From: a virus
Taxonomy: Duplodnaviria > Heunggongvirae > Uroviricota > Caudoviricetes
DNA: 10,866 bases
Strand: one strand, 5' to 3'
IMG/VR virus record: IMGVR_UViG_2579778899_000010
Coordinates: 1 to 10,866 of that record
In this document: piece by piece, positions 1 to 10,866 of the stretch
Layout of the letters: the number at the start of each line of letters is the position of its first letter
How positions within the stretch are numbered: the first letter of the stretch is position 1
The notes under the pieces: generated by a model
The model's database searches: none
What the model was told of the DNA's origin: nothing
Seen by the model: the letters and a program-made list of their open reading frames with translations, nothing else
Translations under genes and position numbers: made by a program

Positions 1-115
1 CACGTTCTAAGTTTTGGACGCCTGCTATAGAGATATCGACAGCCTCAGCAACTTCTCGCAACGTCAGCTTCATCTCTAAACGGCGTGCTTTCAGTCGTTC
101 GCCTCGTGTTTTCAT
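1..115 (-). CDS. Phage repressor-like HTH (XRE/cI family) regulator, N-terminal part only; gene continues beyond the window start
   Basis: Reverse complement of 115..1 reads ATG AAA ACA CGA GGC... = MKTRGERLKARRLEMKLTLREVAEAVDISIAGVQNLER, a typical XRE helix-turn-helix. It is divergent from the cro-like gene across operator repeats. A TATGAT hexamer lies 6 nt upstream of the ATG on the minus strand. The C-terminal domain is not visible. Confidence 0.75.
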   Translation of the reverse strand, partial: MKTRGERLKARRLEMKLTLREVAEAVDISIAGVQNLER

Positions 116-138
116 ACTGTAATCATAAATGATCTTCT

Positions 139-178
139 TATAGCTGGCTATAAAATTTATTTATTATAGCTGGCTTTA
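139..178. promoter_or_regulatory. Operator/divergent promoter region: two copies of TATAGCTGGCT(A/T)TA at 139-152 and 165-178 (imperfect 6-2-6 palindromes)
   Basis: Direct reading: TATAGC-TG-GCTATA at 139-152 and TATAGC-TG-GCTTTA at 165-178, centres 26 bp apart, between the divergently transcribed repressor-like and cro-like genes. The layout is that of lambdoid OR-type operators. Confidence 0.5.
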
Positions 179-206
179 ATTGTTGTTTATTGTTTATAAT
201 AACAAC

Positions 207-428
207 ATGAAACCAGAAGAACTTATTCGCCATTTTGGCAGTGTAGAAAAAGCAGCGGCAGGGGTAGGTGTAACACCCGGAGCTGTTTACCAATGGTTAA
301 CCGCTGGAGAGATTCCTTCATTGCGGCAAAGCGATATTGAAGTTCGTACTGCTTATAAGCTGAAGAGTGACTTTACAACTCGGCGGGTAAAGCAGTCGAT
401 TAAGGAGAGTCGTAAGCGTGGAGCTTGA
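207..428 (+). CDS. Cro-like small DNA-binding regulator (73 aa)
   Basis: ATG at 207 gives MKPEELIRHFGSVEKAAAGVGVTPGAVYQWLTAGEIPS..., with an HTH-like GSVEKAAAGVGVTPGAVYQW segment. It is first in the rightward operon, opposite the repressor. There is no SD; TATAAT at 195-200 sits 6 nt upstream of the ATG. The ORF track's 180 start is a TTG inside the operator. Confidence 0.65.
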   Translation: MKPEELIRHFGSVEKAAAGVGVTPGAVYQWLTAGEIPSLRQSDIEVRTAYKLKSDFTTRRVKQSIKESRKRGA

Positions 429-1128
429 GTATATACGCAGCTGCGTCTCTACGGCATTGGCTGATGTTCATTATCGCCAGCGTGGCATTCTGGAGGTCCA
501 GCTTGAGCAGATGCGTCTCGGTAGATCAGGACGGTTTAACAATAAACCAGTCCGGTCAATCAGTGTGGGGGATGATAACTCATACGAAGTGTCCGTTCCT
601 GCTGAGCCGGTTAGATTCCACCAGGGGAAAACATTTAAACAATCATCAATGTTGCTCACTGATATTGATTTTCAGAGCGCCAGCTGGCGCAGGGCTATTG
701 GTCAGTTGAATAACGAGGAATCAGCCTGGCTTTATTATTGCTACGGATGCAAGCCTGATTACAACAATGATGTGATTGTTTGTCAGTGGTTATGGCTTGA
801 TTTTCTGGTTGCTCATTCGGGGGGCGGCTTTAAAAAAATGAAGGCCTCCACGAAAAAAGCCATGCGGAAATTGATTTATTACGCGGCACAACAGGTTAAA
901 TCAGAACTTACGTGTGCTGAGGCAGTTGATGAGAGAGAACAGGACAGGCATCTGAGTTTTCTACTGAATATATCTATTGATAGCTGGAGACAAGATTATA
1001 AAGAACGCTGGCTTTTAATTAAGTCGCGATGTCTGAGCTTAAATCGAACTGCATTATTAAATGCGGCGGAGAAGCGCAGTGAAATCATCAAACGCCATCG
1101 GGCAGGAAGTGCCATTCTGTCTTTGTAA
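418..1128 (+). CDS. Hypothetical early-operon protein (236 aa); function not recognised (position is that of a cII-like or replication-type gene)
   Basis: GTG at 418 is preceded by the strong SD AAGGAGAG (401-408) and overlaps the cro-like stop. It is a long uninterrupted ORF in the operon frame. I cannot assign a family from the sequence alone. Confidence 0.6.
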   Translation: MELEYIRSCVSTALADVHYRQRGILEVQLEQMRLGRSGRFNNKPVRSISVGDDNSYEVSVPAEPVRFHQGKTFKQSSMLLTDIDFQSASWRRAIGQLNNEESAWLYYCYGCKPDYNNDVIVCQWLWLDFLVAHSGGGFKKMKASTKKAMRKLIYYAAQQVKSELTCAEAVDEREQDRHLSFLLNISIDSWRQDYKERWLLIKSRCLSLNRTALLNAAEKRSEIIKRHRAGSAILSL

Positions 1129-1135
1129 ACAAGTT

Positions 1136-1381
1136 ATGTTCAGGAAACCGTCGAAGCCAGAATTAAGGTATTCGGGGGTAAGAAATGAATATGTTATCTG
1201 GTGTCCAACTTGTGGTTACAGGACACGACCAGATAGTAATAAGCAGTCTGTAATTGCCGATTGGTATTTATCAAATCAGCCAGGTAATAAGCATATAGAA
1301 AATCTTTGGATTAAGCGTTACTTGGAAATCAGAGAGGGTGCGACCGTGGTCGCACAAGAAAATGAAAATAACGCCATTTAA
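1136..1381 (+). CDS. Small Cys-containing protein, putative zinc ribbon; start uncertain (1061 or 1136)
   Basis: The ORF contains WCPTCGY, and upstream FCLC if started at 1061. There is no clear SD. Its C-terminal codons (GATVVAQ) read straight through palindrome copy 1. Confidence 0.4.
   Translation: MFRKPSKPELRYSGVRNEYVIWCPTCGYRTRPDSNKQSVIADWYLSNQPGNKHIENLWIKRYLEIREGATVVAQENENNAI
1338..1355. repeat. Palindrome copy 1: GTGCGACC-GT-GGTCGCAC
   Basis: Read directly; 8-bp inverted arms around a central GT. Lies at the 1136/1362 gene junction, 6 nt before ATG 1362. Confidence 0.9.
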
Positions 1382-1565
1382 GCAGGGGCCGATGACGCAT
1401 GATGAAGCAGAGCGTCTTTCAGATACTTATCGGCGGCGTGGTAAGAAAGTTCTGGTTGTTCGTTCTGATTTTTTAGGTGATGGATATTGCGTTTATGTTC
1501 ATTTACCTGAATCAGAAAGAACGCCAAAACCATCCAGAACATATCAACAGAAAATTTGGGTATAG
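1362..1565 (+). CDS. Hypothetical small protein (67 aa); start uncertain (1362 or 1392)
   Basis: ATG at 1362 lies 6 nt after palindrome copy 1 and gives MKITPFKQGPMTHDEAERLSDTYRRRGKKVLVVRSDFLGDGYCVYVHLPESE.... The track's longer 1338 start is a GTG inside the palindrome. Confidence 0.4.
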   Translation: MKITPFKQGPMTHDEAERLSDTYRRRGKKVLVVRSDFLGDGYCVYVHLPESERTPKPSRTYQQKIWV

Positions 1566-1588
1566 ATAAACGTTGAGGAGAATTATTC

Positions 1589-2188
1589 GTGACTAATCAG
1601 ATTATTTACGACAGGAAACGGTCTGATGTAATGATTGACCTTGAAACAATGGGTACTAACACATGTGCTCCAATTGTTTCTATCGGGGCAGTGTTTTTTT
1701 CTCCAGAAAGTGAGGAATTAGGTCCTACTTTTTATGTGCCAGTGAATCTCAGAAGCTCGATGTTGAATGGTGGTATCGCCGATGGTGATACCATTTTATG
1801 GTGGTTGAAACAGAGCAAGGAAGCCAGAGCCGCTATTTGTACTAATGATGCCCTTGATATTAAGGATGCACTTTTTGAATTATCACACTTTATTACTTGC
1901 CATGCATGTAATTTAAAAAAATTGAAAGTATGGGGAAATGGAGCAACGTTCGATAATGTAATTTTACGCGGTGCTTATGAGCGCGTTGGCTTAGCCTGTC
2001 CGTGGGAATATTTTAATGATCAGGATGTTCGAACAATCGTTAATCTTGGTCAGTTTATTGGTTTTAATCCTAAAAAAGATATGCTATTTGATGGCGAACG
2101 ACACAATGCCCTGGCTGATGCTATTCATCAGGCTAAATATGTATCCGCAATTTTCTCCCGTCTTGTAAAAGGGCAAGGAGAATCGTAA
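1589..2188 (+). CDS. DEDDh-type 3'-5' exonuclease (DnaQ-like fold, phage Rv2179c-like family)
   Basis: GTG at 1589 with SD GAGGAG upstream. Motifs: D-x-E in MIDLETMG, a second Asp in GATFDNVIL, and H-x4-D in ERHNALADAIH. The size (199 aa) is typical. Confidence 0.8.
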   Translation: MTNQIIYDRKRSDVMIDLETMGTNTCAPIVSIGAVFFSPESEELGPTFYVPVNLRSSMLNGGIADGDTILWWLKQSKEARAAICTNDALDIKDALFELSHFITCHACNLKKLKVWGNGATFDNVILRGAYERVGLACPWEYFNDQDVRTIVNLGQFIGFNPKKDMLFDGERHNALADAIHQAKYVSAIFSRLVKGQGES

Positions 2189-2607
2189 TGGCAAAGGCTT
2201 TTACACCAGAACAGAGGGAAGAACTGAATAAACAAATTGTGGAACTCGTGCGCCTGAATGGACGAGGAACGGTTAGGCAACTTGCGGATGAAACTGGTAT
2301 TAGCCGGTGTGCTGTTAGTCGTTTATCAAGAGAGCTTGCTGCCAGTGGTGATTTGTATATCTCTGGCTCCGGGATATTTCTGTCTGCACAAGCACGCAAG
2401 GACTGGCAAAACGCCCGTAAAAAACTATCAAGAGTAAAGCCGAAGAAATCGGTAGTGGTTGATCCAGACCTTATCTGGTCATTACCTGACGGAGAAATAC
2501 GTCGTTACGACAGGCGCTTGAACATGATTTGTCACGATTGTCGGAAGAGCGAAGTTATGCAGCGTGTGTTGGCGTTTTATCAGGGAAATTTTCAGGAGGT
2601 GGCGTAG
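2188..2607 (+). CDS. Hypothetical protein with probable winged-helix/HTH segment (139 aa)
   Basis: SD AAGGAGA before ATG 2188, with TAATG overlap with the exonuclease stop. Candidate HTH in GTVRQLADETGISRCAVSRLSRELAASG. Confidence 0.65.
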   Translation: MAKAFTPEQREELNKQIVELVRLNGRGTVRQLADETGISRCAVSRLSRELAASGDLYISGSGIFLSAQARKDWQNARKKLSRVKPKKSVVVDPDLIWSLPDGEIRRYDRRLNMICHDCRKSEVMQRVLAFYQGNFQEVA

Positions 2608-2897
2608 TGAATATCGACACCACGATAACGATCGATACGGCCCTAAATACCGGTCTGGCACTTCTCGGTTGGTTTTACATCATGTTCAGTGCGGGGAAGT
2701 GGGCGGCCTCTGTTTTTCTAAAGCAGTGGGGAAAGCGCCGCAAACAGGAAAAACGCCAGAAAGCGTTGGAGGCGTTCTATGACGCATTTGAACTTAGCCG
2801 CATTGAGCCAGGCACAACAGCCAAGATAGCGACAAAAGGCGACCTGATGATAGTGATGTTCCGACAGGAGAGAGCAGAGAAAGGTGAATCAGCATGA
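2607..2897 (+). CDS. Small membrane protein (96 aa), one hydrophobic helix
   Basis: GTG at 2607 with SD AGGAGG at 2595-2600. Hydrophobic segment LALLGWFYIMFSAGKWAASVF is followed by a basic stretch KQWGKRRKQEKRQK. The track's 2529 start has no SD. Confidence 0.5.
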   Translation: MNIDTTITIDTALNTGLALLGWFYIMFSAGKWAASVFLKQWGKRRKQEKRQKALEAFYDAFELSRIEPGTTAKIATKGDLMIVMFRQERAEKGESA

Positions 2898-3643
2898 AAT
2901 TTTCTAAATTTTCTGAGTTGGTGAATCGTATTTTGTTGAATCGTATTTTGTCCAACAACCACAGCCATCGTCGCGATATGGATGTAACAATCGTTGTTCA
3001 TTCGCCTGGCAGCATTGGTTCAACACCTTCAGTTGAGGTTCAGTCAATTCACGCTGGTTTTGATTGGGATTCCGGGAAAGTGCTTATTTTCCCATCACAG
3101 CCACTGACCACGCTAACACCAGAACAGATTACTGATATCACTGATAGTGTGCGCAAAGGTCAGTCCTGGCACGCATATCAGGAATATAAAAATCATAAAG
3201 AGCAGTTGGAAAAATTGTCGATTGAGTTGGAATCAGCCAAAAATCACATAGCAGAACTGGAAGCCAAACCTGTAAGCCAAACTTACAAGTTAACTTTTGA
3301 GCAATGGCTGGAACAGCAGCATGACAAAATTGATGTTGATTGTGGATGTGTAAGTACTGAAATGCTTATGCACTGGATAAGGGTCGCGTATGAGGCTGGC
3401 AACTATCCGGTAACTCCGGATGGTTGGATAAGCTGTAGTGATCGAATGCCTGAAAAGGGCCAGAACGTGCTTATTTCGGTGAATTTCGATAGCTCTCTGG
3501 TTGAACCGCTAATATGCTCCGCACGCTATACCGGAAGCACCTTTCGGAGCGGAGATGCAACGATTAAGCCGGGTAATGGTATTGAGCAAGCAACTCACTG
3601 GATGCCACTACCAGAACCGCCGCAGGAGTCGAAGAGTGAATAA
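2894..3643 (+). CDS. DUF551-like phage protein (249 aa)
   Basis: ATG at 2894 after AAAGGTGA. The C-terminal portion GWISCSDRMPEKGQNVLIS...HWMPLPEPP matches what I recall of DUF551. An in-frame 15-bp tandem duplication lies near the 5' end. Confidence 0.65.
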   Translation: MKFSKFSELVNRILLNRILSNNHSHRRDMDVTIVVHSPGSIGSTPSVEVQSIHAGFDWDSGKVLIFPSQPLTTLTPEQITDITDSVRKGQSWHAYQEYKNHKEQLEKLSIELESAKNHIAELEAKPVSQTYKLTFEQWLEQQHDKIDVDCGCVSTEMLMHWIRVAYEAGNYPVTPDGWISCSDRMPEKGQNVLISVNFDSSLVEPLICSARYTGSTFRSGDATIKPGNGIEQATHWMPLPEPPQESKSE

Positions 3644-3857
3644 AGCAGAGTTATTTCAGAAAATATCGGCTCTCGCGACTGAATGCCACGCTATAGCATC
3701 TGAGCTTGATGTTGGTGATGAACGAACCGAGATGTTCGAAATATACAGTGTGCTGCGCAATCTCTGTCGGCGTGGCTACGCCACTCAAGTAGGGCGAATG
3801 ACTAACCCACTACTCTCATCCTGTGATGAGGATGACTCAGATGAGGATGACGAATGA
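3636..3857 (+). CDS. Small acidic protein (73 aa)
   Basis: GTG at 3636 with GGAG upstream, overlapping the preceding stop. The product ends in the acidic tail DEDDSDEDDE. The track's longer 3555 start overlaps the previous gene. Confidence 0.45.
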   Translation: MNKAELFQKISALATECHAIASELDVGDERTEMFEIYSVLRNLCRRGYATQVGRMTNPLLSSCDEDDSDEDDE

Positions 3858-4384
3858 TGCATAAATCAGTAGCCGGTGAGTTTCAGAAGGAAGTCGATAA
3901 TACTACCGTTCTATTGGACGATATTTTAAGCATTCTCGCGCTGCTTGAGGCTGGCGATTGGTCAGAACATTGCACTAAAACAGAGCTAGGCGGTCGGCTT
4001 GAAAGAGAGATTACACGACTTATTGGTGATGCGCAGGAAGCCACTGTCACTGGCTATGAGTTAATCGCTGAAGCTTGGCGTTTGATGGATGGACAAGACC
4101 CTAAAACCAGCGATTGGCATAGCAAGGCTTCGAAGTATTTAAATTCCAATATTGTAGAAAAAGTTGATGATGACCGTATTGAGGCCGTTAAGGCTGTGTT
4201 GCGTAGACTGGCTGGCAACTCTCCGGTAACTCCGGATGGTCATATTCAGTTTTCTGTTTCACTTCCTGCAGCGTTTGGTGGAGATAAATATTTTATTGAT
4301 GGTGTATTTCAACCTTTGAGATATGAGCGTGACTGTGAAAGGGCGGTTGTGGCCGCTGGCGGTGTAGTTAATTGGGTTAAGTAA
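3854..4384 (+). CDS. Hypothetical protein (176 aa)
   Basis: ATGA overlap with the upstream gene. It shares the peptide AGN(S/Y)PVTPDG with the DUF551-like protein, encoded by a 29/30-nt identical DNA segment. Confidence 0.65.
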   Translation: MMHKSVAGEFQKEVDNTTVLLDDILSILALLEAGDWSEHCTKTELGGRLEREITRLIGDAQEATVTGYELIAEAWRLMDGQDPKTSDWHSKASKYLNSNIVEKVDDDRIEAVKAVLRRLAGNSPVTPDGHIQFSVSLPAAFGGDKYFIDGVFQPLRYERDCERAVVAAGGVVNWVK

Positions 4385-4399
4385 TTTTCAGGAGGATTT

Positions 4400-4726
4400 A
4401 TGGCGCTGACACCGGCAGAACGGCAAAGGAGACGCAGGGAACGGTTGAAGAAGGAAGGCACATCAAGACGGGACTGGATTCTAGAACCTGACGAGTTACG
4501 TATGTTGGGGGAAATTTGTGTATTGCGTAGACCAGGGCGAGTTCCATATTCGGAGAACGAAGTCATTGGTTTGCTGATCAGGAAAAACTATAAGGAGCTG
4601 CAGAAGCAGCTATCTACTACTTGCCCGCGATGTGGTCAAAAAATGCCTGTTTCAGAATGCATTTTTGATGGCGAAGGGTCATGCCACCTTACAACCACGA
4701 GGCTGAAACTTGCGCTCAAAGCGTGA
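4400..4726 (+). CDS. Arginine-rich-motif protein with C-terminal Cys cluster (108 aa); candidate RNA-binding protein
   Basis: Strong SD CAGGAGG before ATG 4400. N-terminus MALTPAERQRRRRERLKKEG is an ARM-like basic stretch. C-terminus carries CPRCG...C...C. Confidence 0.7.
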   Translation: MALTPAERQRRRRERLKKEGTSRRDWILEPDELRMLGEICVLRRPGRVPYSENEVIGLLIRKNYKELQKQLSTTCPRCGQKMPVSECIFDGEGSCHLTTTRLKLALKA

Positions 4727-4744
4727 CTGGTCACGGAGGGATAA

Positions 4745-4987
4745 ATGGATAAAAAGGCATTGCTTTTTGAAATGATACGAAAACGGAGCGAAAAGAGCTT
4801 TTCTGATGGTGGTGATGGTTTTGTTTTCGCTTCGATGCTTTCTTTTGATGTTGGGTTAAATAGCAGAATTGTTAAAAGGATGCTTGATTCTGCTGTCCGT
4901 ACTGGACTTCTTGAGAAAGTTGATCGTGGCATAGGGAGAGAGCATAAGTATCGGGTCACACAGCAGTTTACGCAGTTAATTCATTGA
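4745..4987 (+). CDS. Hypothetical small protein, possible winged helix (80 aa)
   Basis: SD GGAGGG before ATG 4745. Last gene of the rightward early operon before the AT-rich SOS promoter region. Confidence 0.6.
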   Translation: MDKKALLFEMIRKRSEKSFSDGGDGFVFASMLSFDVGLNSRIVKRMLDSAVRTGLLEKVDRGIGREHKYRVTQQFTQLIH

Positions 4988-5008
4988 AAATTGACCGTAA
5001 AGTTTGAG

Positions 5009-5036
5009 TTTTACCCTGTAATTTTATACAGTATAA
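5009..5036 (+). promoter_or_regulatory. SOS-type promoter: -35 TTTACC (5009-5014), LexA box CTGTAATTTTATACAG (5015-5030), -10 TATAAA (5031-5036)
   Basis: CTGT-N8-ACAG with an AT-rich spacer is the E. coli LexA operator pattern. It exactly fills the 16-bp spacer between the -35-like and -10-like hexamers, 40 bp upstream of ATG 5070. Confidence 0.6.
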
Positions 5037-5069
5037 ATAACCTTTTTTAGTTAAATGGTATGAGATTTA

Positions 5070-5273
5070 ATGTCTGAAGCAGCCGTATCAACTCTTGAAC
5101 AACTCGATTCAAATTTAAGAGATATTGACGCCGTTCTGGATCTGGTTAGCGTCACCCTGGCTTCTCCAGAAGCCAGCCTACATATTGGTGAGGTTTCACG
5201 ACTCATCAACATGTCGCGAGAGATTGCCCAGCATTGTCAGCAAACTATCGCTGTTGAGCGTTCACATCATTGA
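5070..5273 (+). CDS. Small protein (67 aa) under putative LexA control; candidate SOS-induced antirepressor or induction factor
   Basis: ATG at 5070 downstream of the LexA-box promoter gives MSEAAVSTLEQLDSNLRDIDAVLDLVSVTLASPEASLHIGEVSRLINMSREIAQHCQQTIAVERSHH. SD is weak. Function is inferred from context only. Confidence 0.55.
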   Translation: MSEAAVSTLEQLDSNLRDIDAVLDLVSVTLASPEASLHIGEVSRLINMSREIAQHCQQTIAVERSHH

Positions 5274-5315
5274 TGCACACCCCGCCCTTCTGGACGGGGT
5301 AGTAAAAGAGTCTAA

Positions 5316-5603
5316 TTAATAAACAGCGCGAATATCGATGGTTGCGCCGCAGGCATGAGCATATTTAGCCAAAGTTTTCATACTTGCCCCTAAAGGATTG
5401 CTTTCCAGGCGGCTGATGGCTGACGGTCGCAACCCCATTCGTTCAGCCAGAGCTGATTTCGTTAAACCTGCTCTTTCCCTCATTTCGTATAACATTTCGA
5501 CCATCTCCAGCTCTTTGTCGGCCTCTTCATATCCTTTGACGGCTTCTGGAGTGTTGAGGAGTTTTTCTTTTACTTCGTTAAACGGGATGCCTTTCGCTTT
5601 CAT
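5316..5603 (-). CDS. HTH (XRE-family) antitoxin of a HigA-like type II TA pair (95 aa)
   Basis: Minus-strand ATG at 5603-5601 with SD AAGGAGA 7 nt upstream, overlapping the toxin stop by 1 nt. HTH segment LTKSALAERMGLRPSAISRLESN. Confidence 0.8.
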   Translation of the reverse strand: MKAKGIPFNEVKEKLLNTPEAVKGYEEADKELEMVEMLYEMRERAGLTKSALAERMGLRPSAISRLESNPLGASMKTLAKYAHACGATIDIRAVY

Positions 5604-5914
5604 CAGTTCATCTCCTTCAGGCGAGTTCTGGCGATTTCGATAGCCTTCACCGGTGTTTTCTGTGTCTTTTTTACAAATGCATGCAATAGATAAATTTCGT
5701 TACCAGTCGCGTAGGCGTACAGCGTTCTTGCGATGTTTTTATCCCCTACTCGTAGTTCAAAAAGCCCTCCACCTATTACACGGCTATGGGGCATCTTCAG
5801 TTTGTTGCCTTCCTTCTCCAGTCGCTCAATTAATCTGGTCATGCGACCTCGCAAATCATCTGGTAGTTCAAGCAGTTCATCCAGTGCTGCAGGGTGGGTT
5901 ATCACGTTAAACAT
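5603..5914 (-). CDS. RelE/ParE-superfamily toxin, HigB/Gp49-like (103 aa)
   Basis: Minus-strand ATG at 5914-5912 with GGAGG 7 nt upstream. Product MFNVITHPAALDELLELPDDLRGRMTRLIERL...GGLFELRVGDKNIARTLYAYATGNEIYLLHAFVKKTQKTP matches the RelE-fold Gp49/HigB pattern. Toxin-first order with a coupled HTH antitoxin. Confidence 0.8.
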   Translation of the reverse strand: MFNVITHPAALDELLELPDDLRGRMTRLIERLEKEGNKLKMPHSRVIGGGLFELRVGDKNIARTLYAYATGNEIYLLHAFVKKTQKTPVKAIEIARTRLKEMN

Positions 5915-6079
5915 ATTATAGCCTCCATAGCCATAAAATACACCAAAACAAGAAAAAAGCGCAAATTAAAAATTTCACTAAAAAGTTAAAAATAACACTG
6001 GATGTGTTCGTTTGGCAGAGTTACAGTTCGTGTCATTGAGGGGCAATAACCCACTAACTATATGAATTTGGAGGATATT

Positions 6080-6301
6080 ATGAATTATCAAGGTAACGAA
6101 AAAATGCGCGACGACGTTGCGGAGATAGCTAACGAACTGTATGAGTTGTGGCAGAAGGTTGAACGTTTCGAAAAGGAATATGGTTTCAACAGTACCAACC
6201 TGGCAGAACGACTGGCTGGTCGCTTAGTTGGGACTATGGGGCCAAAACTGGCTGAGTTGAACCGCTTTATGGCTGATGTTGATTTCCAGTTTCAAGATTG
6301 A
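6080..6301 (+). CDS. Hypothetical small protein (73 aa)
   Basis: Strong SD GGAGG (6069-6073) 6 nt before ATG 6080. The track's longer 6062 start has no SD. Confidence 0.55.
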   Translation: MNYQGNEKMRDDVAEIANELYELWQKVERFEKEYGFNSTNLAERLAGRLVGTMGPKLAELNRFMADVDFQFQD

Positions 6302-6314
6302 TTAGAGAGGCGTT

Positions 6315-6542
6315 ATGAATATTAATGAAATTCGTGGAAATATGACTGAAGCGGCCCTGAGTGTGGAATGTGTTATGCGTGGATACCCACGCATTTCCCT
6401 GAAAGAGTTAAGCGAAGCCTGTTTTTTGAGTCAAGCTGCCGTTGAATTTATCATCGAACAGATGATCTGTTTTGGGGTTGCAAAGCGTAGCGGGTCTGGT
6501 CGATATTCTTTGACCGATGAATATAAGCAGGCAACTTTCTAA
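6315..6542 (+). CDS. Hypothetical small protein with possible winged-helix DNA-binding fold (75 aa)
   Basis: SD GAGAGG before ATG 6315. Segment RISLKELSEACFLSQAAVEFIIEQMICFGVAKRSGSGRYSLT is wHTH-like. The stop lies 5 nt before palindrome copy 2. Confidence 0.5.
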   Translation: MNINEIRGNMTEAALSVECVMRGYPRISLKELSEACFLSQAAVEFIIEQMICFGVAKRSGSGRYSLTDEYKQATF

Positions 6543-6547
6543 AAACT

Positions 6548-6565
6548 GTGCGACCACGGTCGCAC
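6548..6565. repeat. Palindrome copy 2: GTGCGACC-AC-GGTCGCAC (central dinucleotide inverted relative to the other three; flanking T/A extend it to 20 bp, 6547-6566)
   Basis: Read directly. Immediately after the stop of the 6315..6542 gene and about 85 bp upstream of the intrinsic terminator. Confidence 0.9.
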
Positions 6566-6650
6566 AGCACAAAAACGAAAAAGCTTGGCAAAATTACGGT
6601 TTTTAGTTATTGTTTTGTTAAGTTGGGTTTTTTGTACCCAACATCCAACA

Positions 6651-6676
6651 AGCCGCCTTTATGGCGGTTTTTTTGT
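6651..6676 (+). terminator. Rho-independent terminator (hairpin AGCCGCC / GGCGGTT with 5-nt loop, then a T7 run)
   Basis: Sequence AGCCGCCTTTATGGCGGTTTTTTTGT: GC-rich stem plus a run of seven T, located between the small-gene pair and the methyltransferase. Confidence 0.6.
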
Positions 6677-6764
6677 GCCTGAAAAGTGGGCGCAGGACAA
6701 GTTGCAGCTTGTCCTGCGGTCAACCCATGCCAGAGCTATAGGCTGAACCTAAAGCCCACCCGCG

Positions 6765-7886
6765 ATGCGCATCGCCGGGTTAGCTTACCCAGGCAAAAAA
6801 ATAATAGCTATGTTCAAAACCACTAATATTCATGGCGCGCAACTCGTTTGCGCAGATTCTCTGCAATTTATCAAAACCATCCCTGATAACTCGGTCAATT
6901 TGATTGCAACAGACCCACCATACTTCGGCGTAAAGGCTAACGCATGGGATAACCAGTGGGATAGCGATGCTGACTTTTTGGGGTGGATTGATGAATTTTT
7001 GGCAGAATTTTGGCGGATATTGGCCCCTAATGGCAGCCTGTATATGTTTACCGGCTCTCGCCTTGCGTCAAAAATTGAATTATTAACTCGCGACCGTTTC
7101 AATGTTCTGAACCATATCATTTGGGCTAAACCCAGTGGTATGTGGCGCGGTTGTCATAAAGAAAGTTTAAGGGCTTATTTTCCTGCCACTGAAAGAATAT
7201 TATTTGCAGAGCATTACGGCGCGTCAGGTTATGCTAAAGGTCAGTCAGGTTATGCTTCAAAATGTGCAGATTTAAGAAAAAATATTTTTTCTCCACTAAT
7301 TGATGCTTTTTCGCTGGCTCGCCGTCAGTTAGATATATCAGCCGCAGACATTAATTCAGCAACAGGAAAGCAGATGTGTTCGCACTGGTTTTCTTATTCG
7401 CAGTGGCGGCTTCCATCATTAAGTGATTTTAATAAACTATGCGAATTATTTCGCAGGAAGGCAGATTCACTCGGTGTCCCGTGTCCATATCCTTTTAATG
7501 TTGATTATTCAGAACATGAAAAGCGTTATAGCGATCTGAAATTGCGTTATGAGGAAGTAAAGAAGCAGTATGATGATTTGAAGGCTCAGTATGAAAATTT
7601 GCGCCGCCCATTTCATGTTACTGCTGATGTACCTTATACCGATGTATGGGAGTTTCCTCCTGTGCAATATTATCCTGGCAAGCACCCATGTGAAAAACCT
7701 GCAGCGATGATGGAACATATTATAAAAAGTAGTTCCCGCCCCGGAGATATCGTTGCCGATTTCTTTATGGGATCAGGCTCTACTATTAAAGCCGCGCTGA
7801 AGTTAGGTCGTCAGGCAATCGGTATTGAGATTGAGGGTGAACGTTATCTTCAGACAGTTGATGAAGTGAAAAAGTTATTTGAGTAA
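6765..7886 (+). CDS. Orphan DNA methyltransferase, beta-class N6-adenine/N4-cytosine type (373 aa as drawn; alternative start ATG 6810)
   Basis: Motif IV DPPY in LIATDPPYFG near the N-terminus and motif I FFMGSGST near the C-terminus; this order is the beta-class permutation. A heptad-like insert YSEHEKRYSDLKLRYEEVKKQYDDLKAQYENL lies between them. Neither candidate start has an SD. No restriction endonuclease gene is adjacent. Confidence 0.85.
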   Translation: MRIAGLAYPGKKIIAMFKTTNIHGAQLVCADSLQFIKTIPDNSVNLIATDPPYFGVKANAWDNQWDSDADFLGWIDEFLAEFWRILAPNGSLYMFTGSRLASKIELLTRDRFNVLNHIIWAKPSGMWRGCHKESLRAYFPATERILFAEHYGASGYAKGQSGYASKCADLRKNIFSPLIDAFSLARRQLDISAADINSATGKQMCSHWFSYSQWRLPSLSDFNKLCELFRRKADSLGVPCPYPFNVDYSEHEKRYSDLKLRYEEVKKQYDDLKAQYENLRRPFHVTADVPYTDVWEFPPVQYYPGKHPCEKPAAMMEHIIKSSSRPGDIVADFFMGSGSTIKAALKLGRQAIGIEIEGERYLQTVDEVKKLFE

Positions 7887-7981
7887 CTGAAGAATATATT
7901 CCCCTGCCGTTTTTGATGGGGTTATTTCTCGCCGTATAGTTTCCAAGCCGAAACCTCAGCAACTATTGCGAGGTAAGAGAT

Positions 7982-8254
7982 ATGAAGATGGATGAACGAT
8001 ACAGCAGCGCATCTTATGGTAGTGCTGGTCTTACTGCGTTCTTTGCCAGCCTGTCATTGCAGGATTGGGGCTTCATTATCGGTGTCGCGTTCAGCATTAT
8101 CCTCGGTGTACTTACATACCGGCTCAATAAACGCGAGCAGATGAAGCGCACGAAGATATTGCAGGACATATTGGATAAAACTGATGCCAATAATATTTCC
8201 GCCACGGCGATGGTTATTGGTGAATTGGGAAAGAGAGCACCGAAGGAAATATGA
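7982..8254 (+). CDS. Holin, pinholin-like with two TMDs (90 aa), possible dual-start motif MKM
   Basis: ATG at 7982 and again at 7988. Two hydrophobic segments, [13 protein letters not shown] and [18 protein letters not shown], then a charged tail. Sits immediately upstream of, and overlapping, a SAR endolysin gene. Confidence 0.65.
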
Positions 8255-8817
8255 TGCAGTCATCATTACGCAAAGCTGTCGCAACTGCTATTGGTGGCGG
8301 GGCTATTGCCATAGCATCTGTGCTCATCTCTGGTCCGAGCGGCAACGATGGTCTGGAAGGTGTGAGACATAACCCCTACAAAGACATCGTTGGTGTATGG
8401 ACTGTATGTTACGGGCATACAGGAAAAGACATTATGCTCGGTAAAACGTATACCGAAGCAGAATGCAAAGCTCTCCTGAATAAAGACCTTGCTACTGTCG
8501 CCAGACAAATTAACCCGTACATCAAAGTCGATATACCGGAAACAACGCGTGGTGCTCTTTACTCGTTCGTTTACAACGTGGGTGCAGGCAATTTCAGAAC
8601 ATCGACACTTCTTCGCAAAATCAACCAGGGCGATATCAAAGGTGCATGTGATCAACTACGTCGCTGGACATATGCTGGCGGCAAGCAATGGAAAGGGCTG
8701 ATGACTCGCCGTGAGATTGAGCGTGAAGTCTGTTTGTGGGGCAGCAATGAGCAGAGTAACCGCAATTATCTCCGCACTGGTTATCTGCATCATCGTCTGC
8801 CTGTCGTGGGCTGTTAA
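8251..8817 (+). CDS. SAR-type endolysin (T4-lysozyme-like muramidase, GH24), with an apparently extended C-terminus (188 aa)
   Basis: N-terminal signal-anchor-release segment [26 protein letters not shown]. Catalytic region [25 protein letters not shown] carries the Glu/Asp/Thr arrangement. SD GAAGGAAAT precedes ATG 8251. The last 24 aa are the Rz leader read in another frame. Confidence 0.85.
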
Positions 8818-9208
8818 TCATTACCGTGATAACGCCATCGCCTACAAGGAGCAGCGCGACAAAAACGCCAGAGAGCTGAAGCTGGCGAACGCCACTATCA
8901 AAGACTTGCAGATCCGCCAGCGTGATGCAGCGGCGCTGGATGCCAAATACACGAAGGACTTAGCTGATGCCAAAAAGCAGCTTGATGATTTGCAGCGTTG
9001 TGTTCGCACTGGCAAGTGTGGGCTGCACCTCAACGCCAGATGTTCCGCGAACGGAGCGACCAGCACCGGCGGCCTGGGCGATGTTACCGGCCCCCGACTT
9101 ACTGACTCCGCTGAACGGGATTATTTCACCCTCAGAGAGCGAATCGTCACAGTGACGAAACAGGTTGGATATTTGCAGGAGTACATCAGGACGCAATGCC
9201 TGAATTAA
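8747..9208 (+). CDS. Rz: Rz i-spanin (153 aa)
   Basis: [49 protein letters not shown]... closely matches phage lambda Rz as I recall it: N-terminal TMD then a coiled-coil periplasmic domain, C-terminus ...YIRTQCLN. Confidence 0.85.
8967..9155 (+). CDS. Rz1: Rz1 o-spanin lipoprotein, nested within Rz in the +1 frame (62 aa)
   Basis: SD AAGGA 8 nt before ATG 8967. Signal peptide with lipobox-like ...ALASVGC, then a proline-rich mature part ending ...[11 protein letters not shown], as in lambda Rz1. Confidence 0.75.
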
Positions 9209-9249
9209 TCCATCTGCATCAAAAACGAACTCAATTTGTTGGATAGTGA

Positions 9250-9561
9250 ATGAAAATTTATATTTCCGGGCCAATGACGGGATATGAGAACTCTAATCGT
9301 GACGCCTTTAATAAAGAGGCAGATCGTTTGTCACGACATGGTCACTCTGTCTTGAATCCAGCCACTTTGCCTAATGGTCTGACACAACGTGAATACATGG
9401 ATATTTGCTTTGCAATGCTTCGTTGTGCTGATGCTATTTTGATGCTTCCTGGCTGGAAAGCGTCTGCTGGAGCAACTGCTGAGTATCATTACGCATACAA
9501 GATGGAGATGCCGGTATTCACTACGCTGAATTACCCGCCAGCTTGTTCCTCTGTAGCATAA
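9250..9561 (+). CDS. Small protein with nucleoside 2-deoxyribosyltransferase-like N-terminus (DUF4406-like), 103 aa
   Basis: MKIYISGPMTGYENSNRDAFNKEADRL... resembles the N-terminal signature of NDT-like/DUF4406 proteins. The family assignment is from memory and unverified. First gene after Rz. Confidence 0.55.
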   Translation: MKIYISGPMTGYENSNRDAFNKEADRLSRHGHSVLNPATLPNGLTQREYMDICFAMLRCADAILMLPGWKASAGATAEYHYAYKMEMPVFTTLNYPPACSSVA

Positions 9562-9580
9562 AAATCTCTTTGTTTCTCGT

Positions 9581-9598
9581 GTGCGACCGTGGTCGCAC
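9581..9598. repeat. Palindrome copy 3: GTGCGACC-GT-GGTCGCAC
   Basis: Read directly. 19 nt after the stop of the 9250..9561 gene, preceded by the boxA-like string TCTCTTTG (9564-9571). Confidence 0.9.
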
Positions 9599-9800
9599 AT
9601 TAAATACCGCGCTGCATCGTCGCCGTATTTCCGCATTAACCATGACCGTAGCCCGACGGGGAACTCCTCTGCGCGAGTGTGCGGAAATAATCAAAAACGA
9701 TGCACACCGGGTTTTTACCGCGCTAATGATTCGCGGGTTTGTCCCTCATGCTCGCCAGTCCTGTGCGAGGGTGGAAGAAACAGGGCATGTATTCAGGAGC

Positions 9801-9818
9801 GTGCGACCGTGGTCGCAC
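9801..9818. repeat. Palindrome copy 4: GTGCGACC-GT-GGTCGCAC
   Basis: Read directly. Exactly 220 bp from copy 3 (start to start), 23 nt upstream of ATG 9842. Confidence 0.9.
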
Positions 9819-9841
9819 GGTATCTTTGTCAGGAGGTTTTG

Positions 9842-10702
9842 ATGAAAGAGTTGCAAAAAATTAATTCAATAATGGAAAGATTAAGTGCTCTTGAGCGTAA
9901 GCTGGACGATTGTGGAAAGCTGTGTGTTGAAAAGCAAAATGAGCTTTACCGGGAATTTTTTACAATCGTAAGTGAGCTGATGCCAATTGTTAATAACTGC
10001 CTGATGACATCCAGATTTTTTAATGTCGATGCTACTACATCCAGAAAATTTTCTGTGAAAATTCAAGAAAGAGTTTCTGGTAGTGTGACAAGAGAGATGG
10101 CTGAACAGTTGGTGGCAATGAGCAATAAAACAAAAAGAAAAAAGGCATTGCTTGTAACAGCAAATCAGCTTTCAGGGCGCGTTGACTTTCAGGTCAGACA
10201 GGGTGGGCGTGTACTGGTAAATGATGCGTTCGTTGGACGTAGCTTTAGTCCTTACTCGATAAAATATGATGTTGATGCAGATGATCAGGATATCAGCATT
10301 TCCTGGAAATCTGAGACAGCAGGAATTGTATTAACAGCAGAGTTGTTGAGTGATGATAAAAATGATGTCCAGCATCATTTGGACGAAAAGAATCATATTT
10401 CTGAAATTTGTATGAAGCCACGCAGCGGAATGACTTTATTGTCACGCACTCTTGCTGCTGGCTTTTCTGCACCGGAAAAACGTGTGCTTCTGGTAGTGCC
10501 TGAAGATGCAGATATTCGACCACTGAATGGCTGTGATGTTATTAGTGCAAAAACATTGCATACCCGCGTCATTCCTGTACCGGATGTGGTCATTATTGAT
10601 GATGTTGAGAAATGCAAGTCTGTTTCCTCAACTGCCACAATCAAGCGAATTTTACGTTGTAGCACGTCGGCTGTTGTATTCCGGAAGCAGTTACATAACT
10701 AA
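9842..10702 (+). CDS. Hypothetical protein, 286 aa, AT-rich moron gene of unknown function
   Basis: Strong SD AGGAGG (9831-9836) before ATG 9842. Long clean ORF with no hydrophobic helices noticed and no recognisable motifs. The track's 9581 start is a GTG inside palindrome copy 3. Confidence 0.7.
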   Translation: MKELQKINSIMERLSALERKLDDCGKLCVEKQNELYREFFTIVSELMPIVNNCLMTSRFFNVDATTSRKFSVKIQERVSGSVTREMAEQLVAMSNKTKRKKALLVTANQLSGRVDFQVRQGGRVLVNDAFVGRSFSPYSIKYDVDADDQDISISWKSETAGIVLTAELLSDDKNDVQHHLDEKNHISEICMKPRSGMTLLSRTLAAGFSAPEKRVLLVVPEDADIRPLNGCDVISAKTLHTRVIPVPDVVIIDDVEKCKSVSSTATIKRILRCSTSAVVFRKQLHN

Positions 10703-10825
10703 CCAGTTTTGTTTTGCAGAACATCCTCAACTAAAAGCTTATAGAAAGAGAGCCTGAGATATTTTTTCTGTCTCTCGTAGTTGTTTATTTTTCTCGAACA
10801 GGCTTACAACTTACAGGATATAAAC

Positions 10826-10866
10826 ATGCAAGAAGAAGCAAATAAAATTCTTGTTGATTTATTGAA
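10826..10866 (+). CDS. 5' end of an unknown gene (MQEEANKILVDLL...), truncated by the window end
   Basis: ATG at 10826 preceded by ACAGGATA. Only 13 codons are visible. Confidence 0.3.
   Translation, partial: MQEEANKILVDLL

Follow-up and report, generated by a model that had tools for sequence, protein, structure and literature searches.

Two neighbouring genes sharing a 31-nt repeat

The window analysed here is the whole stretch of 10,866 nt from a virus of the Caudoviricetes (IMG/VR record IMGVR_UViG_2579778899_000010, positions 1 to 10,866), and the element under study is a short direct repeat carried in frame by two neighbouring genes of this stretch, designated gene 1 and gene 2. The features of the locus are given below by window coordinates.

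2894..3643, + strand: gene 1, open reading frame (ORF) of 249 aa, with the linker at residues 168-177
3394..3424, + strand: linker repeat copy 1, GGCTGGCAACTATCCGGTAACTCCGGATGGT, encoding (E)AGNYPVTPDG, gene 1 residues 168-177
3425..4209, + strand: inter-repeat segment, which together with one repeat copy makes up an 816-bp unit
3636..3857, + strand: ORF of 73 aa (phrog_4220), between the linker copies and within the 816-bp unit
3854..4384, + strand: gene 2, ORF of 176 aa, with the linker at residues 120-129
4210..4240, + strand: linker repeat copy 2, GGCTGGCAACTCTCCGGTAACTCCGGATGGT, encoding (L)AGNSPVTPDG, gene 2 residues 120-129

The initial annotation of this sequence had placed two 30-mers differing at one base at 3395-3424 and 4211-4240. 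Both positions were borne out, and the length was corrected by one further base on the left side, so that the direct repeat is 31 nt long (3394-3424 and 4210-4240, both on the + strand), 30/31 identical, with a start-to-start spacing of 816 nt. The sole difference between the copies is A versus C, giving TAT (Tyr) in copy 1 and TCT (Ser) in copy 2, and both copies are in frame and encode (A)GN[Y/S]PVTPDG. A third copy with up to three mismatches was not found in the window, and 200 dinucleotide-preserving shuffles of the window gave no match at the same tolerance (two observed versus zero expected).

The two proteins were found to be built from different modules. Gene 1 consists of an N-terminal module, a coiled-coil-like helix, a PVSQTYKL motif, a 35-aa module, the linker and a DUF551 domain. 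The Pfam match to DUF551 (PF04448; gathering score 22 bits) reached 84.7 bits (E = 8.5e-24) over profile positions 1-68 of 68 and spans gene 1 residues 177-244, so the domain begins at the last residue of the linker, in agreement with the earlier statement that the shared peptide directly precedes a DUF551-like C-terminal part. Gene 2 consists of an N-terminal module (residues 1-48), a widely shared middle module (49-119), the linker and a C-terminal module of 47 aa. No Pfam family, DUF551 included, matched gene 2 at E <= 0.1, and a cryptic DUF551 in its C-terminal module was ruled out by a score of only 0.3 bits against a local DUF551 hidden Markov model (HMM) built from 70 DUF551 modules. 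The two proteins therefore do not share one domain along their whole length, and outside the linker their best local alignments gave 7/29 and 3/9 identical residues, which upholds the description of the two proteins as otherwise unrelated. The PHROG matches to the two genes were likewise a patchwork: the sole family common to both, phrog_24004, corresponds to the linker region only, and phrog_20174 matches residues 1-117 of gene 2 only. The 816-bp unit contains the DUF551 module, the 73-aa ORF and the N-terminal part of gene 2.

Natural recombinants joined at the repeat

PhiR46_1 (46 kb), which has the same backbone as the window, carries a single repeat copy (positions 2080-2110 of locus L001). 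In it, window positions 1300-3424 (97.2% identity) are joined straight to 4210-6000 (99.4%), with the 816-bp unit exactly missing. Its 'Ea22' protein of 219 aa is accordingly composed of gene 1 residues 1-167 (153/162 identical), the linker and gene 2 residues 130-176 (45/47 identical), and no DUF551 was found in this hybrid by Pfam. The EaA protein of the P22-like phage HF4s is composed of gene 2 residues 49-119 (69/71 identical), the linker and a DUF551 domain, which is the reciprocal of the PhiR46_1 combination. In phage CMS-2020a an unrelated left flank is joined to the DUF551 module of gene 1, homology begins within the linker at 3405, and window positions 3405-4172 are 97.3% identical.

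Base-by-base alignments with PhiR46_1, HF4s and CMS-2020a showed identity falling from near 100% to the random level exactly at the repeat edges. The homology of PhiR46_1 stops at 3424 and restarts at 4210, that of HF4s to gene 2 stops at 4240, and in HF4s and many Escherichia coli genomes the homology to the gene 1 side begins at about 3394-3406. The same edges were seen in BLAST searches of E. coli, where most matches to the two-gene region start at query positions 500-513 (window 3393-3406) and the partial matches to the PhiR46_1 hybrid junction cover query 1-231 or 201-431, ending or beginning exactly at the repeat. Seven complete E. coli records have the arrangement of the window and eight have the hybrid junction.

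All four combinations of the two left modules (N1, N2) with the two right modules (DUF551, C2) were observed, namely N1+DUF551, N2+C2, N1+C2 and N2+DUF551. Within this lineage of N15-like plasmid prophages, some members have the 816-bp unit and others lack exactly that unit, and its flanks are 97-100% identical to PhiR46_1 on both sides. Both arrangements are common in public assemblies: a protein identical to the 176-aa gene 2 product is indexed in 1233 blocks, and of the 219-aa hybrid, P0192 alone is carried on 713 contigs.

Reuse of the linker in other phages and hosts

The 17-nt core of the linker, CCGGTAACTCCGGATGG, was found in at least 119 IMG/VR contigs. After clustering of the 150 nt on each side of the core, it was found to join at least 47 left to at least 33 right flank clusters in at least 85 combinations, with at least 13 complete 2x2 sets of left and right clusters. 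Among the matches listed, 19 left clusters have more than one right partner and 15 right clusters have more than one left partner, the same reading frame is open at the core in 122/123 instances, and the right-hand modules are mostly DUF551, the others being of the WVMVPK type or the C-terminal module of gene 2. Among the 109 unique contexts listed, homology to the window extended no more than 19 nt to the left of the first Pro codon in 108, and was lost 0 nt downstream of copy 2 in 108. The initial annotation had suggested looking in relatives for alternative domains joined at this linker and for a sharp drop of identity beside the 30-mer; the former are seen in PhiR46_1, in HF4s and among the IMG/VR combinations, and the latter in the alignments, the ends of the E. 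coli BLAST matches and these IMG/VR contexts.

The linker also occurs more than once in one protein or locus. A protein alignment of the mosaic relatives of gene 2 (A2) showed a bead-on-a-string pattern, in which one protein (P0069) has two linkers, and one IMG/VR locus (L015) has three copies of the 17-nt core inside about 700 nt. For a three-locus test, the left module (AYEA or RRLA), the Ser/Tyr residue of the linker and the right module (WISC or H[IV]QF) were scored in 240 protein cluster representatives, and 7 of the 8 possible combinations were found to exist, which implies crossovers on both sides of the polymorphic linker base or its recurrent mutation.

The 61-nt stretch at 3394-3454 was found in 2089 of 5426 complete E. 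coli genomes (about 38%), at 3657 places and up to nine times per genome. Taken with the dozens of contexts in which the patch lies, the absence of matches from the shuffles and the lack of relationship between the flanks of the two copies in DNA and protein, this distribution leaves next to no probability for an origin of the repeat in chance similarity, or in an ordinary tandem gene duplication followed by divergence, for which nothing more speaks than that the two genes are adjacent on the same strand. A scan of one genome per species (596 Gb) for the 17-mer core gave 76 matches, which is near the number estimated for chance, and about 10 of the 76 are real, in Escherichia, Citrobacter, Kluyvera and two short contigs of a Segatella metagenome-assembled genome (MAG); the scan is informative on host range only. 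The latter two (L148, JAJXBQ010000292.1; L153, JAJXBQ010000315.1), of 2.7-3.3 kb and from a Segatella copri MAG, carry the linker and the DUF551 edge in E. coli-like DNA and are probably misbinned enterobacterial phage fragments.

Synonymous uniformity of the linker

The conservation of the linker extends to its DNA.

3397..3451, + strand: conserved DNA island of about 55 nt, comprising the linker and the N-terminal edge of DUF551, GN[SY]PVTPDGWISCSERMP

In the position profile of the 109 unique contexts listed, the island extends from about -10 to +44 nt relative to the codon of the first Pro, its flanks are at background or random identity, and its third codon positions are conserved as well as the first and second. 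A fully degenerate back-translation of PVTPDGW matched 119 IMG/VR contigs, about 109 (about 92%) of which have the identical 17-mer, and the variant codings seen are each one or two synonymous bases off it. With 47 unique DUF551 contexts as an internal control, the probability of finding the same codon in two sequences was 0.8-1.0 across the linker and the N-terminal edge, including the rare codons ATA and CGA, and 0.5-0.77 at the equally conserved C-terminal edge peptide THWMPLPEPP. The sequences from Citrobacter and Kluyvera, which the 17-mer itself served to ascertain, keep the linker DNA unchanged and differ at the adjoining DUF551 edge in both DNA and protein. Selection at the protein level alone does not explain these results; they would be explained if the patch is often the site of exchange or gene conversion, or if the nucleic acid itself is under selection.

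These data bear on the view that the segment is kept by a need for the peptide alone, as a hinge, a docking motif or a processing motif, that the chimeras arise by illegitimate recombination with survival of the in-frame products, and that the DNA identity is a by-product. The peptide GN[SY]PVTPDG(W) is indeed conserved in very different proteins, low-confidence models place it in a putative non-regular segment after a helix and before the beta-rich DUF551, and no traces of homology were reported at about 70% of phage mosaics by De Paepe et al. (PMC3945230). We regard this view as unlikely, since in independent relatives the boundaries match the identical DNA patch to the base, the synonymous sites of the linker are far more uniform than those of the C-terminal edge, with the rare codons ATA, CGA, GTA and ACT kept, and about 92% of the PVTPDGW occurrences are in one DNA sequence.

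The models in question were made with AlphaFold2. Their mean predicted local distance difference test (pLDDT) values of 55.7 and 45.1 are low. In both models the linker follows a helix and lies in a non-regular stretch, and in gene 1 the beta-rich DUF551 comes after it; this weak support for a coil behind a helix would be compatible with a hinge.

Predicted hairpin and candidate recombination sites

An imperfect palindrome lies across the linker of gene 1.

3400..3426, + strand: imperfect palindrome of 27 nt, CAACTATCCGG-TAACT-CCGGATGGTTG, with an 11-bp stem including one G-U pair and a 5-nt loop

The predicted RNA fold of 3380-3460 (81 nt, copy 1) had z = -4.7, and that of the copy 2 region had z = -1.1, which is no better than shuffles. 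When compared with 2000 synonymous recodings, the predicted linker hairpin was in the top 0.5% with TCT and in the top 0.4% with TAT. The PVSQTYKL motif has a hairpin as well (TGTAAG-CCAAA-CTTACA, 6-5-6; P = 0.011 versus synonymous recodings), and six other recurrent motifs, including the DUF551 C-edge, CRAAMLQ and the N-edge, showed no hairpin excess over synonymous recodings. After correction for about eight motifs these P values are only suggestive.

A dedicated DNA or RNA element would account for such a hairpin: the 27-nt palindrome would then be a nuclease or recombinase target, a replication-stalling hairpin that sets off template switching or an mRNA pause site at a domain boundary, and selection would act on the nucleic acid. 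Besides the stem and loop of copy 1 and the z value of its fold, a hairpin more stable than 99.5% of synonymous recodings for TCT and TAT alike, the 6-5-6 hairpin of PVSQTYKL as the other highly promiscuous motif, the exceptionally low synonymous diversity, and the linker DNA of Citrobacter and Kluyvera, unchanged beside a differing DUF551 edge, would fit this explanation. It is nevertheless judged very unlikely. The 15 kb of annotated context contain no linked recombinase or nuclease gene, a mismatch interrupts the stem in the commonest variant (TCT) and copy 2 folds no better than its shuffles, the DUF551 C-edge, CRAAMLQ and N-edge joints are without hairpin excess, the significance weakens after the correction for motifs, no Rfam family matched, and there is no covariation to test because the linker sequence is invariant. 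A related proposal, rather improbable, takes the linker for a selected nucleic-acid element, almost invariant at synonymous sites across phages of Escherichia, Citrobacter and Kluyvera, whose hairpin would create hot spots of template switching and cassette exchange by stalling replication or by being the target of an enzyme; if it held, fast-evolving accessory proteins of phages would have a domain-shuffling site built into their genes.

Sites for site-specific recombination (shufflon sfx, integron attC or invertase sites) were considered and rejected. No integrase, invertase or resolvase is annotated in 15.5 kb around the corresponding locus of plasmid pG749_3, a close relative of the window described below, none is present among the gene calls of loci L134-L136 either, and the repeats are direct, not inverted.

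Recombination at the linker and its possible mechanism

The comparisons of sequence point to the 31-nt repeat being, with high probability, a mosaic recombination joint, that is, a short in-frame patch coding for a linker in many otherwise unrelated accessory genes of enterobacterial temperate phages. The accessory genes carrying the patch are annotated as Ea22, EaA or DUF551 proteins. The initial annotation had taken the segment for a likely crossover point for domain shuffling in temperate phages, and the natural recombinants support that assignment.

The patch is nearly identical in DNA and constant in frame, so crossing-over inside it yields intact chimeric genes. Such crossing-over may take place between co-resident phages or prophages, or between two copies in one genome, where replication slippage between the copies would have the same outcome. 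The most likely mechanism, inferred from these arrangements, is homologous recombination at the patch of 31-55 nt or replication slippage at it; the candidate pathways would be host RecA, phage single-strand-annealing recombinases and RecA-independent slippage, the last of which, acting between direct repeats, could be an alternative for the intramolecular 816-bp deletion. For recombination by Red-beta a minimum of about 30 bp is quoted, traces of flanking homology are reported at about 30% of phage mosaics (both PMC3945230), and relaxed recombination by phage recombinases has been described (PMC2327257).

Several points weigh against the assignment of the repeat as a recombination joint. The evidence for crossing-over at the linker is comparative throughout. 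The core in common with non-DUF551 partners is only about 20-31 nt, which is the lower limit for efficient recombination by RecA or Red, so that the events should be rare, and illegitimate joining followed by selection is an alternative. The 816-bp event in this lineage can be read as an insertion or as a deletion, and E. coli and related bacteria, heavily sequenced and close to one another, make up most of the sample. A function at the DNA or RNA level, instead of or beside passive homology, could be indicated by the unusually low synonymous diversity and the hairpin, and the pLDDT values are too low to establish a flexible inter-domain hinge.

Further joints within gene 1

Two more short conserved segments of gene 1 coincide with ends of homology.

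3269..3292, + strand: PVSQTYKL motif, a recurrent short conserved segment in many left-hand contexts
3585..3628, + strand: DUF551 C-terminal edge, THWMPLPEPPQE, a further boundary of the mosaic with a conserved peptide and varying codons

The homology of HF4s covers 3585-3628, that of locus L136 begins at 3585, and the match of phage Cyrano begins at 3581. In several relatives the homology to gene 1 breaks off at 3225-3261, shortly before the PVSQTYKL motif, whose coding DNA has only two main variants in unrelated left contexts of IMG/VR. The linker is thus the most used among several short conserved patches, and the presence of several joints in gene 1 is more in keeping with general homologous recombination than with one dedicated site.

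The DUF551 domain in these phages has near-invariant edges, WISCSERMP and THWMPLPEPPQE (window 3425-3454 and 3585-3628, respectively), and a hypervariable core of 37-54 aa between them (window 3455-3584), a layout that resembles an exchangeable cassette. A diversity-generating retroelement was considered for the hypervariable core and rejected, with no second copy of the DUF551 region in the window and no reverse transcriptase annotated in the pG749_3 context. In some relatives DUF551 is fused to an Rv2179c-like exonuclease or to a dATP/dGTP pyrophosphohydrolase.

Gene 1 also has an in-frame tandem duplication of 15 nt (2922-2936 and 2937-2951, TGAATCGTATTTTGT twice), which gives NRILLNRIL; a single NRIL is present in PhiR46_1 and in the consensus of the aligned homologues.

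Comparison with known systems

Intragenic joints are discussed for lambdoid phages such as HK620 and HK97. Linker or boundary sequences belong to the modular theory of phage evolution (Botstein 1980, cited in PMC3945230). The present joint resembles these in being a short conserved segment between non-homologous segments at a module boundary, with alternative modules on either side and natural recombinants consistent with crossing-over in the conserved patch. It differs in being intragenic, at a domain boundary and in a fixed frame, so that domains are shuffled and not whole genes or operons, and in the presence of two copies 816 bp apart in one genome, with both reciprocal combinations documented.

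According to a study in Sci Rep 2024 (PMC10834534), the ea22 genes of lambda and Stx phages are mosaic, DUF551 is a 'portable domain', the mosaicism is block-wise, and a 16-aa segment is common to two otherwise different C-terminal regions. The present genes are alike in lying in an early accessory gene neighbourhood and in having the same DUF551 module on alternative N-terminal parts. Unlike ea22, the proteins here are below the Ead/Ea22 models of Pfam and NCBIfam and belong to an N15-like plasmid prophage, not to the lambda exo-xis region. In the searched passages of PMC10834534 the word 'linker' is absent, and neither reciprocal recombinants nor conservation at synonymous sites nor a DNA joint as a place of recombination is discussed.

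The likely enzymology here is the relaxed recombination by Red-beta/Rad52-like recombinases that generates phage mosaics (PMC3945230, PMC2327257), in which temperate phages and prophages exchange DNA where their homology is short or diverged. Unlike the kb-scale mosaics with flanking partial homology in those studies, the homology here is one patch of about 31-55 nt that recurs in dozens of contexts, and no recombinase was identified in the window itself.

Polymorphic toxins have demarcation motifs, such as VENN in CdiA and PxxxxDPxGL in Rhs, which are thought to supply homology for replacement of the C-terminal part. The likeness, which is an analogy, lies in a short conserved peptide and DNA motif between a conserved or variable N-terminal part and interchangeable C-terminal modules; the protein families and the biology are different, and here both sides of the motif are variable. 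No sign of a toxin or immunity function was found by PADLOC for gene 1, gene 2 or the hybrid.

In the literature covered, which was incomplete, no prior description of this linker, of its DNA uniformity or of the reciprocal recombinants was found. Mosaic ea22 genes, a portable DUF551 and linker-mediated exchange are already known, and the locus is a well-documented new example. It is an unusually clean natural case of intragenic module exchange in temperate phages, and four module combinations joined at one 31-nt patch give concrete, testable support for modular evolution in its linker version. An assay of short-homology recombination could be built on the locus, with 31 nt of homology, one central marker base and an 816-bp deletion or insertion as the read-out.

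Genomic setting and annotation

The window is 97.7% identical overall, and 99.8% identical over 2894-4384, to plasmid pG749_3 of E. coli G749. Upstream of the two genes pG749_3 has a CyRepA1-family replication gene, an XRE repressor, cro and an antiterminator Q gene, and downstream a RelE/antitoxin pair, a DNA methyltransferase and lysis genes; the setting of the two genes is an N15-like plasmid prophage.

The counterpart of gene 1 in pG749_3 is annotated as a DUF551 domain-containing protein. Gene 2 in pG749_3 (window 3998-4384), an intact and widespread gene, is called a pseudogene fragment 'missing N-terminus' by RefSeq, and the 219-aa hybrid of the PhiR46_1 type is named 'DUF551 domain-containing protein' at NCBI, despite the Pfam result for it given above. 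The mosaic structure thus misleads the automatic annotation of gene 2 and of the hybrid gene, and the practical consequence is that annotation by partial similarity goes wrong around the 61-nt island. The names 'Ea22' and 'EaA' are record annotations of relatives: neither gene 1 nor gene 2 matched the Ead/Ea22-like family (PF13935 / IPR025153) in Pfam at E <= 0.1, and some relatives (P0234 and P0236) do carry PF13935 together with PF04448. A scan of gene 1, gene 2, the 73-aa ORF and the hybrid against NCBIfam gave nothing meaningful, and that against PADLOC gave only a 14.8-bit match, for the 73-aa ORF. No Rfam family was matched in a scan of the whole window. A promoter and terminator consensus scan of 2700-4600 gave nothing at either repeat, with counts at the level of shuffles.

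A perfect palindrome of 18 nt, GTGCGACC-NN-GGTCGCAC, is present in four intergenic copies in the window (1338-1355, 6548-6565, 9581-9598 and 9801-9818), versus zero copies expected by chance, and none of the four is followed by a T-run. These palindromes could be operator sites or RNA stem-loops of late or early-right operons, and one copy is also present in PhiR46_1 (L001 39-57).

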